From a virus (taxonomy: Duplodnaviria; Heunggongvirae; Uroviricota; Caudoviricetes), in IMG/VR virus record IMGVR_UViG_2663762948_000005: DNA of 9,310 nt; one strand, given 5' to 3'. This document shows positions 1 to 6,524 of this stretch, piece by piece (within the stretch, counting starts at the first letter, position 1; the number at the start of each line of letters is the position of its first letter). Both the position numbers and the translations under genes were made by a program. A model generated the notes under the pieces. That model had not been told where the DNA came from and did not search any database. It saw only the letters and a list, made by a program, of their open reading frames with translations.

Positions 1-423
1 TCACTTCAATAAATACCGAACATCCCCCTGATAAAACGACAATATGCGCTGCATAACTTCGCTCTTCCGGCACTCGCGACAGATTATGTTTAGGCGACTG
101 TCGTAGCGACGTATTTCTCCGTCAGGTAATGACCAGATAAGGTCCGGATCAACCACAACCGGTTTCTTCAGCTTTGCCCTCGATAATTTTTTGCGGGCAT
201 TTTGCCAGTCTTTACGAGCCTGTTCAGACGGGAATAACCCGTAGCCAGAATTGTATACATCGCCACTGGCAACCAGCTCTCTGGCCAGAACGCTCATCAG
301 ATATCTTGTTGCCCCAGTTTTAGCTTCCAGTTGTCGTAACGTCTCGCGCCCACTCTGGCGTACGAGTTCAAGAACCTGCCCTTTAATTTTTTCCCGCTCT
401 TCTTGTGTAAAAACTTTTGCCAC
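1..423 (-). CDS. hypothetical protein, 140 aa, immediately downstream of the replication-initiator-like gene
   Basis: Complete ORF on the minus strand with stop at 1-3. GTG start at 421-423 is preceded by AGGAGG (complement of 428-433), a 4-nt spacer. No recognisable Walker motif, so it is not the DnaC-like YdaV expected at this position in K-12 Rac. Function unknown. Confidence 0.55.
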   Translation of the reverse strand: MAKVFTQEEREKIKGQVLELVRQSGRETLRQLEAKTGATRYLMSVLARELVASGDVYNSGYGLFPSEQARKDWQNARKKLSRAKLKKPVVVDPDLIWSLPDGEIRRYDSRLNIICRECRKSEVMQRILSFYQGDVRYLLK

Positions 424-463
424 AAGCCCTCCTGAAAATTACCTCATGACCAGAAATTAACAC

Positions 464-1534
464 TTACCCCCTGAAGCCCGGCGGAATTTCGTTATCCGGT
501 TCAGAAATATGATTCACACAACGCTGGTTGTTCGTGCCGCTTACCGGGAGCAACCAGGGGTTCTCAAAATTCCGGTCCGGTCCAAAAAACGTCGTCGCTC
601 GCTGAACAAATTCCGTTCCCGTTTTCCCGGTAGCCGCCAAGTATCTTGCGTAACGCCTCACGCCATCCAGCATGGCCTCTGGTGGCACCCCCTCGCGTAA
701 TCTGGCCTTCCAGGCACTGAAAGCGGATTTCTTCGGGTTTGCCCCAGCACGCAACGGGTACTCCCGCCAGACCTGTTCGAACACATCCGGATAATCCACT
801 CGTCCCACAGACTGCCCGGTGTTTTCCGGGACTACCCGATCGGCTTCCCGCTGAATGGCGGAATCGGCTTCAGGCTGCTGCAGTTGGTGTGATTGCTCCG
901 CCCTTGCGGTCATCACCTGCTGCACAGCGCCCGAATCGGCTTTCAGCGCATACGCTGAATCGGCTTCCGGTGTCGTGCCTGCTGGCTGACCAAGATTGAC
1001 GGTCTGAACATCCCCTGCCTGGTTCGTGGCGTTTTTTATGCCATGGACCATAGTGTTTTGATCTTCTTGATCTGTATCTTTATCTGTATCTTTATCTGTC
1101 GTGACTCGTCGTGACATGTGCGTGACATTTCGTGACGCGCCGTGACAATCGCCATTTTGTTCCCGCTTTCTTTCCCTCTCTCGCTGCGCCCTCTTGCGCT
1201 CTGCAGGAGATTTTGCGGTTTGCGAAATATTGCCGTTGTCCTCTTTAAGCACCTGGCGTTTTTCCCATCCAGTGATTAAATCACCATCAAGTACCCGCCC
1301 CTGCATCGTCTGCAAAATTGAATCAATTACCTCTTCTGTCACGTCGAGCGCACTTGCCAAATCTTCTGTCGTGACATCAATGTGACCTCGCGTGACATTT
1401 CGTGACGCGCTCACCAGGAGGTGGATATACACTGCCATCACTGTTGCAATTGGCTGTCCTGACACCCTGGCAATTGTTCGCCACTTAGGGTCATTTGGCA
1501 TGTCATGCCATAATCTGAGCCAGGCGTTAGCCAT
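464..1534 (-). CDS. putative phage replication initiation protein (lambda O analogue, YdaU position), about 356 aa
   Basis: Long minus-strand ORF; the track starts it at GTG 1540, but ATG at 1532-1534 with GAGGTGA just upstream is the more likely start. It has an N-terminal domain, a charged low-complexity linker (ERKRAQRERERKREQ...DKDTDKDTDQEDQ) and a conserved-looking C-terminal domain. It sits downstream of ydaS/ydaT-like genes as in K-12 Rac. Family assignment is from memory and uncertain. Confidence 0.65.
   Translation of the reverse strand: MANAWLRLWHDMPNDPKWRTIARVSGQPIATVMAVYIHLLVSASRNVTRGHIDVTTEDLASALDVTEEVIDSILQTMQGRVLDGDLITGWEKRQVLKEDNGNISQTAKSPAERKRAQRERERKREQNGDCHGASRNVTHMSRRVTTDKDTDKDTDQEDQNTMVHGIKNATNQAGDVQTVNLGQPAGTTPEADSAYALKADSGAVQQVMTARAEQSHQLQQPEADSAIQREADRVVPENTGQSVGRVDYPDVFEQVWREYPLRAGANPKKSAFSAWKARLREGVPPEAMLDGVRRYARYLAATGKTGTEFVQRATTFFGPDRNFENPWLLPVSGTNNQRCVNHISEPDNEIPPGFRG
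1061..1146. repeat. iteron-like array A: two 12-bp tandem units (ATCTGTATCTTT) followed by five CGTGAC hexamers spaced 10-11 bp
   Basis: Read directly: CGTGAC at 1100-1105, 1110-1115, 1121-1126, 1131-1136 and 1141-1146, preceded by atctgtatcttt at 1070-1081 and 1082-1093. Lies inside the initiator gene's linker-coding region. Confidence 0.7.
1361..1410. repeat. iteron-like array B: four (C)GTGAC hexamers spaced 10-11 bp; shares an exact 20-bp repeat with array A
   Basis: Hexamers at 1370-1375, 1381-1386, 1391-1396 and 1401-1406. The 20-mer cgtgacatttcgtgacgcgc occurs at 1121-1140 and again at 1391-1410, 270 bp apart. Both arrays begin with atct(t)ctgtcgtgac. Confidence 0.7.
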
Positions 1535-1605
1535 ACTCACCTCTTTTGATACCGAATCTTTTTACTCACAAATTGCCGGAAGTGATCCGGTATGAATATT
1601 GCGAG

Positions 1606-2895: not shown

Positions 2896-3070
2896 TCCTT
2901 CTTTTCATACCAACCCACCCCGCCCCACAGAATGCAGGGCAATACTTCGAGTTACCAGGCAGTGGTCAGGGGTTAAGTAGCCAGCCCGAGGCGTAAGAAC
3001 ATGACGGCGGGATTCAAATTTTGCAGTGCAGCAGTTAGTTCCGCCACCCGGCGTTAAGGGGAGAGATAAG

Positions 3071-3205
3071 ATGGTGCATTACGAAGTAGTTCAGTATTTG
3101 ATGGATTGTTGCGGTATCACTTACAACCAGGCTGTGCAGGCTTTACGCAGCAACGACTGGGATCTCTGGCAGGCAGAAGTCGCTATACGTAGCAACAAGA
3201 TGTGA
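3071..3205 (+). CDS. ydaG: small Rac prophage protein YdaG, 44 aa
   Basis: ATG at 3071 preceded by GGGGAGAG. Translation MVHYEVVQYLMDCCGITYNQAVQALRSNDWDLWQAEVAIRSNKM matches my recollection of K-12 YdaG. Too short for the ORF track. Confidence 0.55.
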   Translation: MVHYEVVQYLMDCCGITYNQAVQALRSNDWDLWQAEVAIRSNKM

Positions 3206-3215
3206 GATTCGCAAA

Positions 3216-3371
3216 ATGCAAAAAATCGACCTCGGCAACAACGAATCCCTGGTGTGCGGCGTGTTCCCCAACCAGGATGGAACGTTCACTGCCATGACGT
3301 ATACCAAAAGCAAAACATTTAAAACCGAAACTGGTGCGCGCCGATGGTTGGAGAAGCACACAGTAAGCTAA
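3216..3371 (+). CDS. ydaF: small Rac prophage protein YdaF, 51 aa
   Basis: ATG at 3216. Translation MQKIDLGNNESLVCGVFPNQDGTFTAMTYTKSKTFKTETGARRWLEKHTVS matches my recollection of K-12 YdaF. Weak RBS. Converges on sieB with a 4-bp overlap. Confidence 0.5.
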   Translation: MQKIDLGNNESLVCGVFPNQDGTFTAMTYTKSKTFKTETGARRWLEKHTVS

Positions 3372-3856
3372 CGATTAAAACGTCTACTCCTGCTGTTCCA
3401 GAATAACTTCATAAAATGGGAGTATTTTTCGGTGACGAGATAATAAGAACAGTTTGCGCTATCACTCTGATGTTGAATGATGCCCTTCCGTTCTAATTTT
3501 TTCATAACCGGGTTACGGCAAGGAGAAGTGATAATAAGATTTCCTGTTTTAAGGAAATCTTTAAATACAGCGATTTCTTTCTCAGATAAACGAAGCAATA
3601 CTCGTTGCTCTGGTAGTAATGAATAATGCTTTTGAATATGTGCTCGCAATCTTGAGAAGGAAATGGCGACCACGAAAGAAAAGGCAAAAACGATAATCTG
3701 AAAGAGCCAAGGTATTTCAGTATAAGCATTGAATGCGACAGTAAACTCTTTCGGTATCAGCCAGAGAGTGAGACCAAAAATGATAATCGTATACATAAGT
3801 CTTTCGAGTGGCTCGTTAGCAAAAAGTTTCAACAATGGAGTAAATACATCCAACAT
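3368..3856 (-). CDS. sieB: superinfection exclusion protein B, 162 aa, membrane protein
   Basis: The track ORF 3368..3979 has a 41-codon N-terminal over-extension. The likely start is ATG at 3854-3856 (MLDVFTPLLK...), with GAGAG upstream on the minus strand. Two hydrophobic segments are present. Sequence matches my recollection of K-12 Rac SieB. Confidence 0.75.
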   Translation of the reverse strand: MLDVFTPLLKLFANEPLERLMYTIIIFGLTLWLIPKEFTVAFNAYTEIPWLFQIIVFAFSFVVAISFSRLRAHIQKHYSLLPEQRVLLRLSEKEIAVFKDFLKTGNLIITSPCRNPVMKKLERKGIIQHQSDSANCSYYLVTEKYSHFMKLFWNSRSRRFNR

Positions 3857-4074
3857 ATCAATAACTCTCAACTGTAAGGGTATTGAAATGTTAACACAAG
3901 CTCTCGCTGTAGGGGTATAGCCGAGACCACCGAAGCCCGGAGGTGGTGAAATAAAACCGGGCACAACACGAAGGCGCATTTCCGATATCCATAAAGAGTC
4001 GGTCTTGTCTGTTAAATTTAAATGGTGGGAGTGCGCCTCCGGTTGTAAATAACGACATTGCTGTGTGTAGTCCT

Positions 4075-4123
4075 GGCGGCATCAGTTTTTTTCTTGAAGT
4101 TCGGCTGATGTCCGCCCTTTTTA
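4075..4123 (+). terminator. possible intrinsic terminator or structured element in the sieB-kilR intergenic region
   Basis: Inverted repeat ggcggcatcag (4075-4085) and ctgatg-t-ccgcc (4105-4116): 11 bp with one bulge and a 19-nt loop, followed by CTTTTTAAAG. The loop is atypically long, so this is tentative. Confidence 0.25.
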
Positions 4124-4297
4124 AAGTGAATTTTGTGATGCGGTTAATGCGGCTAAGCGCACGTGGCACAGTTAAAAGTCATGTCAGTCCTTATTGGTTT
4201 GGGTGGGAAAGCCGACTGTAATTGTTAACTGGTTGCAGTCACCTGGAGGCACCAGACACCGCATCAACAAAGTTCATTTGTAAAAATGGAGATAATT

Positions 4298-4519
4298 ATG
4301 ATTGCACATCACTTCGGAACTGATGAAATACCACGTCAGTGTGTGACTCCTGGCGATTATGTTCTTCATGAAGGCCGGACATATATTGCCTCGGCAAACA
4401 ATATTAAAAAGCGAAAACTATATATTCGTAACCTGACCACAAAAACATTCATTACTGACCGCATGATTAAAGTCTTCCTCGGTCGTGATGGTTTACCTGT
4501 AAAGGCGGAGTCATGGTGA
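4298..4519 (+). CDS. kilR: KilR, Rac prophage killing protein (cell division inhibitor), 73 aa
   Basis: ATG at 4298 with GGAG 7 nt upstream; the track start at 4286 is an over-extension. Translation [35 protein letters not shown]... matches my recollection of K-12 KilR. Confidence 0.75.
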
Positions 4520-4689
4520 TGACTAAGAAAATAAAATGTGCTTACCACCTTTGCAAAAAAGACGTTGAAGAAAGCAAAGCTATTGAAAGAATGCTTCACT
4601 TCATGCACGGGATTTTATCAAAAGACGAACCGAGAAAATATTGCAGTGAAGCTTGTGCCGAAAAAGACCAGATGGCACATGAACTTTAA
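4519..4689 (+). CDS. ydaE: YdaE, small Cys-rich Rac prophage protein, 56 aa
   Basis: ATG at 4519 overlaps the kilR stop (gtGATGa), with GGAG 8 nt upstream. Translation [56 protein letters not shown] has two Cys pairs (C..C and C...C), possibly zinc-binding. Below the ORF-track length cutoff. Confidence 0.6.
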   Translation: MTKKIKCAYHLCKKDVEESKAIERMLHFMHGILSKDEPRKYCSEACAEKDQMAHEL

Positions 4690-4763
4690 TTAATTGACTA
4701 TTCGAAACTGAATTTATGCCAGAAATGGCAGGTATTCGCTCAACCTTAATTAAGGAGAAAAAC

Positions 4764-5039
4764 ATGATTACCAATTATGAAGCCACTGTTGTAACTACCG
4801 ATGACATTGTTCACGAGGTGAATCTGGAAGGAAAGCGCATTGGCTACGTAATTAAAACAGAAAATAAAGAAACCCCATTCACTGTGGTTGATATCGATGG
4901 TCCATCAGGCAACGTAAAAACACTTGATGAAGGTGTCAAAAAAATGTGCCTGGTGCATATCGGAAAGAATCTGCCCGCAGAAAAAAAAGCCGAATTTCTG
5001 GCAACTCTAATTGCAATGAAATTAAAAGGTGAAATCTGA
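4764..5039 (+). CDS. racC: RacC, 91 aa
   Basis: ATG at 4764 with AAGGAG 6 nt upstream; the track start at 4716 is an over-extension. Translation MITNYEATVVTTDDIVHEVNLEGKRIGYVIKTENKETPF... matches my recollection of K-12 RacC. Confidence 0.75.
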   Translation: MITNYEATVVTTDDIVHEVNLEGKRIGYVIKTENKETPFTVVDIDGPSGNVKTLDEGVKKMCLVHIGKNLPAEKKAEFLATLIAMKLKGEI

Positions 5040-5044
5040 AAGAA

Positions 5045-5069
5045 ATAGCCTGCGTATGGCGCAGGCTAT
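5045..5069 (+). other. perfect 10-bp stem / 5-nt loop hairpin between racC and recE
   Basis: atagcctgcg (5045-5054), loop tatgg, cgcaggctat (5060-5069). No U-tract follows, so it is not a canonical intrinsic terminator. Confidence 0.5.
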
Positions 5070-5140
5070 GAACAGTGTGTATCCGGCAAGATCATTCACT
5101 GAACAAAACGAATTTTAATCTGAGTTGAGGTTAAAAAACA

Positions 5141-6524
5141 ATGAGCACAAAACCACTCTTCCTGTTACGGAAAGCGAAAAAATCATCCGGTGAACCTGAC
5201 GTCGTCCTGTGGGCAAGCAACGATTTTGAATCGACCTGTGCCACTCTGGACTACCTGATCGTTAAGTCAGGTAAAAAACTGAGCAGCTATTTTAAAGCTG
5301 TTGCCACGAATTTTCCTGTCGTTAATGACCTGCCCGCTGAAGGTGAGATCGATTTTACCTGGAGTGAACGCTATCAACTCAGCAAAGACTCCATGACATG
5401 GGAACTAAAACCGGGAGCAGCACCAGACAACGCTCACTATCAAGGCAATACCAACGTCAACGGCGAAGACATGACTGAGATTGAGGAGAATATGCTACTC
5501 CCAATTTCTGGCCAGGAACTGCCCATTCGTTGGCTTGCTCAACACGGCAGCGAAAAACCGGTAACGCACGTTTCACGCGACGGACTCCAGGCATTACACA
5601 TTGCTCGGGCTGAAGAACTACCGGCTGTTACTGCCCTGGCTGTTTCCCACAAAACCAGCCTGCTCGACCCGCTGGAAATTCGCGAACTCCACAATCGTAG
5701 AAGACATAGAGCCAGGTATTTATTACGGAATTTCGAATGAGAATTACCACGCGGGTCCCGGTATCAGTAAGTCTCAGCTCGATGACATTGCTGATACTCC
5801 GGCACTATATTTGTGGCGTAAAAATGCCCCCGTGGACACCACAAAGACAAAAACGCTCGATTTAGGAACTGCTTTCCACTGCCGGGTACTTGAACCGGAA
5901 GAATTCAGTAACCGCTTTATCGTAGCACCTGAATTTAACCGCCGTACAAACGCCGGAAAAGAAGAAGAGAAAGCGTTTCTGATGGAATGCGCAAGCACAG
6001 GAAAAACGGTTATCACTGCGGAAGAAGGCCGGAAAATTGAACTCATGTATCAAAGCGTTATGGCTTTGCCGCTGGGGCAATGGCTTGTTGAAAGCGCCGG
6101 ACACGCTGAATCATCAATTTACTGGGAAGATCCTGAAACAGGAATTTTGTGTCGGTGCCGTCCGGACAAAATTATCCCTGAATTTCACTGGATCATGGAC
6201 GTGAAAACTACGGCGGATATTCAACGATTCAAAACCGCTTATTACGACTACCGCTATCACGTTCAGGATGCATTCTACAGTGACGGTTATGAAGCACAGT
6301 TTGGAGTGCAGCCAACTTTCGTTTTTCTGGTTGCCAGCACAACTATTGAATGCGGACGTTATCCGGTTGAAATTTTCATGATGGGCGAAGAAGCAAAACT
6401 GGCAGGTCAACAGGAATATCACCGCAATCTGCGAACCCTGTCTGACTGCCTGAATACCGATGAATGGCCAGCTATTAAGACATTATCACTGCCCCGCTGG
6501 GCTAAGGAATATGCAAATGACTAA
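5141..6524 (+). pseudogene. recE: recE (exonuclease VIII) disrupted by an internal out-of-frame deletion; N-terminal 183 codons and the C-terminal exonuclease domain lie in different frames
   Basis: ORF 5141..5740 begins [30 protein letters not shown]... (RecE N-terminus as I recall it), stays RecE-like to ...[10 protein letters not shown] (ends 5692), then reads a 15-aa unrelated tail and stops. In another frame, from about 5694 ([23 protein letters not shown]...) to the stop at 6522-6524, the sequence is the RecE C-terminal nuclease domain and overlaps the recT start by 8 bp as expected. The total span is about 1.38 kb against about 2.6 kb for K-12 recE (866 aa, from memory). Confidence 0.7.

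Follow-up and report, generated by a model that had tools for sequence, protein, structure and literature searches.

A predicted Ren-related DUF977 (LygF) protein is encoded directly after the replication initiator gene of a Rac-type prophage

We report that the 140-aa ORF at positions 1..423 (minus strand) of a 9,310-nt stretch of prophage DNA (IMG/VR record IMGVR_UViG_2663762948_000005, hereafter the window) is almost certainly lygF, a member of the DUF977/PHROG 142 family. The gene is an already catalogued, ordinary member of this family in its usual position, and profile comparisons relate its product distantly to the Ren protein of phage lambda. Our confidence in this explanation, as a blend of the identity and a Ren-like role, is roughly 0.5.

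Results

The window ORF is a member of the DUF977 family

Residues 1-135 of the 140-residue product matched positions 1-133 of the 134 in Pfam DUF977 (PF06163) with a score of 99.4 bits (E 2.2e-28), the gathering cutoff for this family being 22.1 bits, and residues 1-137 matched positions 1-113 of the 116 in PHROG 142, 'Ren-like exclusion protein' (E 4.7e-45), which PHROGs assigns to the category 'moron, auxiliary metabolic gene and host takeover'. RefSeq contains an identical protein (WP_001151151.1, labelled 'DUF977 family protein'), annotated on the same CDS in E. coli CP53; at this locus the CP53 and window sequences are 99.9% identical at the DNA level. Phage records refer to the gene variously as LygF, 'Ren-like exclusion protein' or 'DUF977 family protein'; those that carry it include Tritos, mEp460, Rac-SA53 and the Shigella Stx phages 75/02 and POCJ13, and the window protein is 65-96% identical to the LygF of phage records (tblastn). 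The name itself originates from Salmonella Enteritidis Sdr I genes adjoining ydaO and carries no functional meaning. The first-pass annotation, made from the letters of the window, had described the protein as unrecognised and without similarity, a description that is overturned by the full-length Pfam and PHROG matches and by the RefSeq label; clear homology to a known family, which that annotation had itself named as evidence against its view, was looked for and found.

The coding sequence and its ribosome binding signal are as follows.

1..423, minus strand: lygF, DUF977 family CDS, 140 aa (ORF listing, Pfam, PHROG 142, RefSeq, dN/dS)
428..433 (433-428), minus strand: Shine-Dalgarno sequence AGGAGG, with a 4-nt spacer before the lygF start codon (read from the sequence)

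Translation would begin at a GTG codon at 423-421 and end at a TGA codon formed by bases 3-1, which is the edge of the window; the sequence and the ORF listing thus bear out the first-pass description of a 140-aa ORF that has an AGGAGG and begins with GTG, ending exactly where the window does. The GTG start, together with decay elsewhere in the host prophage in the form of an internal recE deletion, might suggest an untranslated ORF, either open by chance or part of a decaying pseudogene. However, dN/dS values for lygF ranged from 0.05 to 0.28 (Nei-Gojobori) against ten homologues of 65-95% protein identity, all of which keep the start position (GTG or ATG), and three distant homologues have ATG there too. 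In addition, a purine-rich Shine-Dalgarno-like sequence (AGGAGG or a variant) is present at the equivalent site in 14 of 14 homologous loci, the family profile is matched over its full length, and the gene is found in 4080 genomes and in viable phages. lygF is a real coding gene under purifying selection, and this selection signature effectively refutes an untranslated ORF, the probability of which we regard as negligible.

A megablast search with the 423-bp gene found lygF in 4080 of 5426 complete E. coli genomes (~75%), with up to five copies per genome, and every one of the listed matches was annotated as DUF977. Beyond the E. coli clade the family is small, comprising 99 cluster representatives (50% identity; 1.84 billion proteins), many of which are fragments. 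A scan of genome contigs for DUF977 loci, which used a narrow pattern and returned 12 loci, found them essentially in Escherichia, Shigella and one Enterobacter only, the matches in Collinsella and Veillonella MAGs being probably mis-binned Escherichia contigs. Fusions of DUF977 to Fic have been reported (Kinch et al. 2009, PMC2686095); none was found among the 99 cluster representatives. As a discovery, a catalogued family member present in three quarters of complete E. coli genomes amounts to little.

Predicted architecture of LygF and its relationship to lambda Ren

Three regions can be delimited in the protein.

229..405, minus strand: N-terminal winged helix-turn-helix, residues 7-65 (AlphaFold2 model, Foldseek, Kinch et al. 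2009)
100..225, minus strand: helix 67-84 and basic linker 85-108, largely missing from Ren (model, hhalign)
25..105, minus strand: C-terminal Ren-type motif, residues 107-133 (DUF977 alignment, BLASTP, hhalign)

The AlphaFold2 model, built from 32 sequences, has a mean pLDDT of 77, rising to ~90 over residues 11-80, and consists of helices at residues 7-24, 29-36 and 40-53, a beta wing at 57-64, a further helix at 67-84 and short helices at 116-132, with a linker that is modelled at low confidence (pLDDT 54-60 over residues 81-110). Residues 67-108 have an isoelectric point of 9.9, and LygF as a whole one of 9.8. The top Foldseek matches in the PDB were mostly winged-helix regulators (MarR, GntR, IclR, ArsR, MntR and Z-alpha), with probabilities of 0.82-1.0 but E values of at least 0.024; since these are not significant alone, we treat them as a fold assignment and not as evidence of homology. 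Kinch et al. (2009) likewise assigned DUF977 to the winged-helix fold, by HHpred and COMPASS (PMC2686095), and the N terminus of LygF is predicted to have this fold. A Foldseek search of viral predicted structures returned generic winged-helix proteins only and no informative full-length match, and a sequence search of solved structures gave nothing meaningful (best E 0.18).

The C-terminal motif, which in the window protein reads Y-D-x-x-x-N-I-I-C-R-E-C-R-K-S-E-V-M-Q-R-I-L-S-F-Y-Q-G (residues 107-133), is by alignment the most conserved part of LygF. Of the 12 columns that are invariant in the DUF977 alignment, ten fall within residues 107-130, with Y107, N112, C115, E117, C118, R119, S121, M124, R126 and F130 unchanged across 15 sequences of 30-88% identity; the recognition helix (residues 40-53) is variable across the family. 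The homologues of Ren show the same pattern in family alignments, their C-terminal motif also being the most conserved part. Both cysteines of the CxxC (C115 and C118) are invariant in DUF977 and the first is a Phe in lambda Ren; it is conceivable from the sequence that the pair forms half of a metal site or a dimer 'hook'.

BLASTP against lambda Ren aligned the C-terminal 20 residues (NIICRECRKSEVMQRILSFY with NLVFKECRQSAAMKRVLAVY, E 5e-6). Comparison of the DUF977 and Ren alignments by hhalign, shallow as both are (Neff 2-3), gave a match of 96.8% (E 2.7e-10) that covers the helix-turn-helix and the C-terminal motif and leaves a gap relative to Ren where LygF carries ~40 extra residues. Finally, a 114-aa protein of Enterobacter hormaechei aligned over its full length to both the DUF977 and the Ren profiles (98.2% and 96.8%, respectively); its length lies between those of Ren (96 aa) and DUF977 (140 aa), and its motif takes the form ICxEC. 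The gene for this protein, in strain B56 (L023 4794-5138), starts one base after a lambda-P-like gene. Because of the profile-profile match and this bridging protein, we consider DUF977 and Ren, by sequence, to be distant homologues within one superfamily. The link is not new, as it is already encoded in the PHROGs grouping.

lygF follows the replication module irrespective of its composition

The genes preceding lygF were compared across 17 DUF977 loci, for which two further features of the window are needed.

424..463, minus strand: 40-nt intergenic spacer between the initiator gene and lygF (locus comparison)
464..1540, minus strand: replication initiator gene, 358 aa in the ORF listing, with a RefSeq start at 1534 (PHROG 3729)

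The upstream gene matched PHROG 3729, 'replication initiation protein', with an E value of 4e-257, and lygF follows it after a 40-nt gap, as the last gene of a rightward early string (cro-like, ydaT-like, initiator, lygF). In every one of the 17 loci lygF begins 12-40 nt after the last gene of the replication module. That module is a lone initiator in nine loci (the window type, Tritos, S. flexneri, the mEp460 type and two distant genera), an initiator and a DnaC-like gene in five (L011, L018-L021), and an initiator, a DnaC- or lambda-P-like gene and a DUF1627 gene in the remaining three (Rac-SA53, 75/02 Stx and E. albertii). Homologues of 32-35% identity occupy the same place after the replication genes, and adjacency of the initiator and DUF977 genes was found in 1541 complete E. 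coli genomes in which at least 80% of a 1600-bp query was covered. The position of lygF is independent of the type of initiator and of the type of loader. The order matches that of lambda, O-P-ren, and from gene order lygF appears to sit in a 'ren slot', after whatever replication module the prophage carries. The 40-nt spacer, nearly identical after two unrelated initiator types (Tritos, mEp460, L015, L016, L017 and L022), seems to travel with lygF.

This arrangement bears on the suggestion of the first-pass annotation that the ORF could be a moron. Such a gene would be expressed while the prophage is repressed and would benefit the host, for example as an exclusion or regulatory factor. The PHROGs category of family 142 is in keeping with this suggestion, as is the fact that no further gene separates lygF from a cargo island in CP53 or from moron-type genes (hokD and others) in Tritos. 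Nevertheless, lygF lies 40 nt after the initiator gene on the same strand, a consensus scan showed no promoter-like or terminator-like site on the lygF strand, and the gene is fixed in position relative to the replication genes and not to the cargo. In addition, the published list of prophage genes expressed in the Tritos lysogen contains no identifiable lygF homologue (PMC9928086; the mapping of locus tags is inferred). The moron suggestion is thus left without support by the promoter scan and the lysogen list, and we regard it as very unlikely.

The prophage is a mosaic

The window belongs to a Rac-type prophage adjoining ttcA, with integrase, recT, recE, kilR and sieB present. DNA like that of K-12 Rac is confined to positions 2906-5527 (99.7% identity; ydaG, ydaF, sieB, kilR, ydaE, racC and the start of recE). 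Positions 1-2905, which hold the repressor, cro-like, ydaT-like, initiator and lygF genes, gave no megablast match to the K-12 Rac segment compared. The prophage is therefore a mosaic in which the module with the immunity and replication genes and lygF has been swapped, and in a Shigella flexneri relative the repressor/cro segment (2044-2912) is different again.

Relative to E. coli CP53, a stretch of ~1.2 kb is missing from within recE (window 5141-6524, junction near 5693), which leaves a 199-aa N-terminal ORF (5141-5740) and, in another frame, a 307-aa ORF (5601-6524) that retains the C-terminal region. To the left of the window edge, the CP53 sequence (L001 1-9000) has a cargo block that starts 340 nt past the lygF stop and encodes a BCCT transporter, a DUF2254 protein, a LysR regulator, a gamma-glutamylcyclotransferase and an MFS transporter, followed by hokD and late-regulation genes. 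Tritos and mEp460 have different cargo at the equivalent spot after lygF.

LygF accompanies helicase loaders and the initiator has a DnaT-like tail

Taking K-12 Rac as its reference, the first-pass annotation placed lygF in the position normally held by a helicase loader gene. That placement is correct with respect to K-12 Rac only and fails in the 1541 E. coli genomes, in Tritos and in mEp460. The same annotation took the upstream gene for a homologue of ydaU, which did not hold up, as Pfam finds no DUF1376 domain in the window initiator, and its alignment with K-12 YdaU is limited to the final 19 residues. In the K-12 Rac segment compared, no lygF was seen after ydaW. A recent deletion of ydaV and ydaW in the strain that carries the window was considered and rejected, because the same junction, with a nearly identical spacer, occurs in viable phages and behind two unrelated initiator types.

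From this placement came the idea that LygF is a stand-in for the loader, recruiting DnaB or the host DnaC-DnaB complex to the initiator at the origin. Consistent with it, lygF directly follows a lone initiator in nine of the 17 loci, including those of the viable phages Tritos and mEp460; moreover, Ren has been described as likely to take part in replication, and a two-hybrid assay reported interactions of Rex proteins with O as well as with Ren. Much of the comparative evidence speaks against it. The window protein lacks a Walker-type motif, as the first-pass annotation had correctly seen in reporting no ATPase motifs, and AAA+/IstB, lambda-P and DnaD-type domains are absent from LygF: no match to PF01695 (AAA+/IstB) or PF06992 (lambda P) was present among Pfam and NCBIfam hits at E <= 1, whereas K-12 YdaV and Rac-SA53 YdaV do match loader families in the same type of search. 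A substitute would be expected to be mutually exclusive with loader genes, but lygF co-occurs with DnaC-like (L006, L011, L018-L021) and P-like (L002, L013) loaders in eight of the 17 loci. LygF proteins that are each ~95% identical to that of the window pair with unrelated initiators, which is unlike a specific initiator-loader pair. [quoted passage not shown] On this gene content, LygF appears to accompany loaders instead of replacing them, and the stand-in function, for which we find neither a loader domain nor the expected distribution, is highly improbable.

The lone initiators offer another, more economical account of the missing loader, a host-dependent route. The relevant features lie within the initiator gene.

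467..538, minus strand: DnaT-like C-terminal tail of the initiator, ...QRCVNHISEPDNEIPPGFRG (NCBIfam DnaT positions 156-179 of 179, E 7e-4)
1065..1406: probable origin within the initiator gene, with two phased CGTGAC iteron clusters and a 12-nt x3 tandem repeat

Every lone, loader-less initiator examined ends in the tail ...ISEPD.EIPPGFRG, and these initiators are of two unrelated types. Unrelated initiators in seven other loci also end in this tail, which was noted at L004, L008, L009, L015, L016, L022 and L007 4120-4977. The window initiator itself finishes in ...ISEPDNEIPPGFRG, and the same tail is found at the end of unrelated initiators of the HTH_36/lambda-O-like type, of K-12 YdaU and of E. 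coli DnaT. It may serve as a short peptide that docks onto a protein of the host primosome, and its recurrence suggests a direct link of these initiators to the host primosome and the DnaC route. Nine of the ten CGTGAC copies in the window fall at 1100-1406 (by chance, a mean of 3.3 copies would be expected in the entire window), five of them at 10-11 nt spacing (1100-1146), three at 1370-1406 and one inverted at 1338-1343; the 12-nt x3 tandem repeat at 1065-1100 adjoins the first cluster (repeat families D1, D2 and D4). This iteron region is probably the prophage origin. The missing loader would then need no substitute, as an initiator with a DnaT-like tail and internal iterons could use the host DnaC/primosome route.

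Tritos, which is loader-less like the window, has an initiator 98.6% identical and a LygF 95% identical to those of the window, and has been reported to be spontaneously induced, to form plaques on MG1655 hsdR- and to have been propagated and imaged (PMC9928086). Because a phage with a nearly identical initiator and LygF forms plaques, the loader-less module is viable, and it is not a defect of the strain that carries the window. This corrects an expectation centred on K-12: in many Rac-type and lambdoid prophages, plaque-forming phages among them, the replication module consists of a single gene, lacks a phage loader and is followed directly by lygF.

Discussion

Possible function of LygF

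Toothman and Herskowitz (1980) reportedly defined ren as the gene responsible for the resistance of lambda to Rex exclusion, and Ren is said by Thomason and Court (2022) to relieve Rex-dependent host phenotypes. Prophages that carry rexAB are much rarer than E. coli genomes that carry lygF. In the account of Thomason et al., ren is 'likely involved in DNA replication' and is transcribed from pR together with O and P, and two-hybrid data indicate that Rex proteins interact with O and Ren (bioRxiv 10.1101/2021.04.19.439022). By analogy, lygF would be co-transcribed with the initiator gene when the prophage is derepressed, and LygF would act like Ren, as a small accessory protein made alongside the replication proteins. 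Through its conserved C-terminal motif LygF would bind a partner shared by many lambdoid phages or by the host, and as a result phage replication could begin without setting off Rex-type abortive exclusion. Co-transcription is suggested by the short gaps and the absence of consensus promoter or terminator matches.

We hold this Ren-type accessory role, with expression alongside the replication genes, to be tentative and somewhat short of an even chance. Transfer of function from Ren is risky because the homology is distant (25% identity, shallow alignments of Neff 2-3), and LygF has a helix and basic linker of 40 residues that Ren is without. A role in countering Rex alone also seems too narrow, because lygF is present in 75% of genomes and rexAB is much rarer; an anti-Rex role, if there is one, would on this evidence cover only part of what LygF does. 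Our literature search found no functional study of any DUF977 protein, and PADLOC defence models matched neither LygF nor Ren.

The main rival to the Ren-like role is that LygF is a sequence-specific transcription regulator, in which the winged helix binds a site in phage DNA, the C-terminal motif oligomerises, and the targets are, for example, the timing of nin-like or late region expression or the modulation of the origin. A winged-helix fold like that of the MarR, GntR and IclR regulators, the basic character of the whole protein (pI 9.8), a recognition helix (residues 40-53) that varies across the family, as expected if targets differ, and the automatic annotation of N-terminal Ren fragments as MarR family regulators would all fit a regulator. 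On the other hand, nearly identical LygF proteins occur beside unrelated initiators, origins and downstream cargo, so that no consistent cis target is apparent; the strongest conservation lies in the C-terminal motif and not in the DNA-reading helix, and winged helices serve protein-protein contacts too. We therefore judge a regulator to be possible but unlikely. The first-pass annotation had listed a replication accessory factor and a regulator among its options, and both are compatible with a winged-helix relative of Ren; substitution for a loader is not supported.

A more speculative extension, which we consider improbable, is that Ren and DUF977 proteins are general replication-coupled adaptors whose invariant C-terminal motif docks onto a conserved component of the host replisome or primosome, such as DnaB, DnaC or PriB, while the variable winged helix contacts DNA. 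If so, LygF would help to recruit the host helicase in loader-less modules such as that of the window, the effect of Ren on Rex triggering would be explained, and lambda ren would gain a biochemical function after more than 40 years. The family makes an easy experimental target, as DUF977/Ren is a very common and strongly conserved early phage protein with a sharply defined C-terminal motif.

Comparison with known systems

The helicase loaders YdaV/DnaC (IstB-type AAA+) and lambda P resemble LygF only in map position, and that only relative to K-12 Rac, where ydaV occupies the place; they have no sequence similarity to LygF and co-occur with lygF in other prophages. A second family compared with LygF is DUF1627. 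K-12 YdaW was considered as a DUF977 protein and rejected, being a truncated DUF1627 protein without similarity to the window protein. The DUF1627 gene is, like lygF, an early gene that encodes a winged helix, and in Rac-SA53 and 75/02 Stx it separates lygF from the replication genes; nevertheless, DUF1627 is a separate family that gives no BLASTP alignment to the window protein and is absent from the window. DUF1627 (YdaW) proteins begin with a winged-helix-like region at L002 5223-5984, L006 4216-4986 and L007 5753-6313.

In the LygF loci of Rac-SA53, Shigella phage 75/02 Stx and phage Tritos (TRITO_37), the gene has the same start and Shine-Dalgarno-like sequence as in the window and likewise comes after the replication genes. 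These loci vary only in the preceding gene, which is a lone initiator in the window and Tritos, whereas DnaC- or P-like loaders, with or without a DUF1627 gene, precede lygF in Rac-SA53 and 75/02 Stx; nothing else of substance differs. The location of the probable origin within the initiator gene likewise has a counterpart in lambda, where O contains ori-lambda.

With lambda Ren itself, LygF shares the predicted N-terminal winged helix, the C-terminal motif N-x-[IV]-[CF]-x-E-C-R-x-S-x-x-M-x-R-[VI]-L-x-[FV]-Y and a slot directly after the replication genes, which for ren is in the pR operon after P. LygF differs from the compact form of ~96 aa without an insert that is characteristic of Ren, since it has 140 aa, 44 more than Ren, and helix 67-84 and linker 85-108 are additional. 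The two also differ in having CxxC (LygF) or FxxC (Ren) in the C-terminal motif, and their overall identity is only ~25%.
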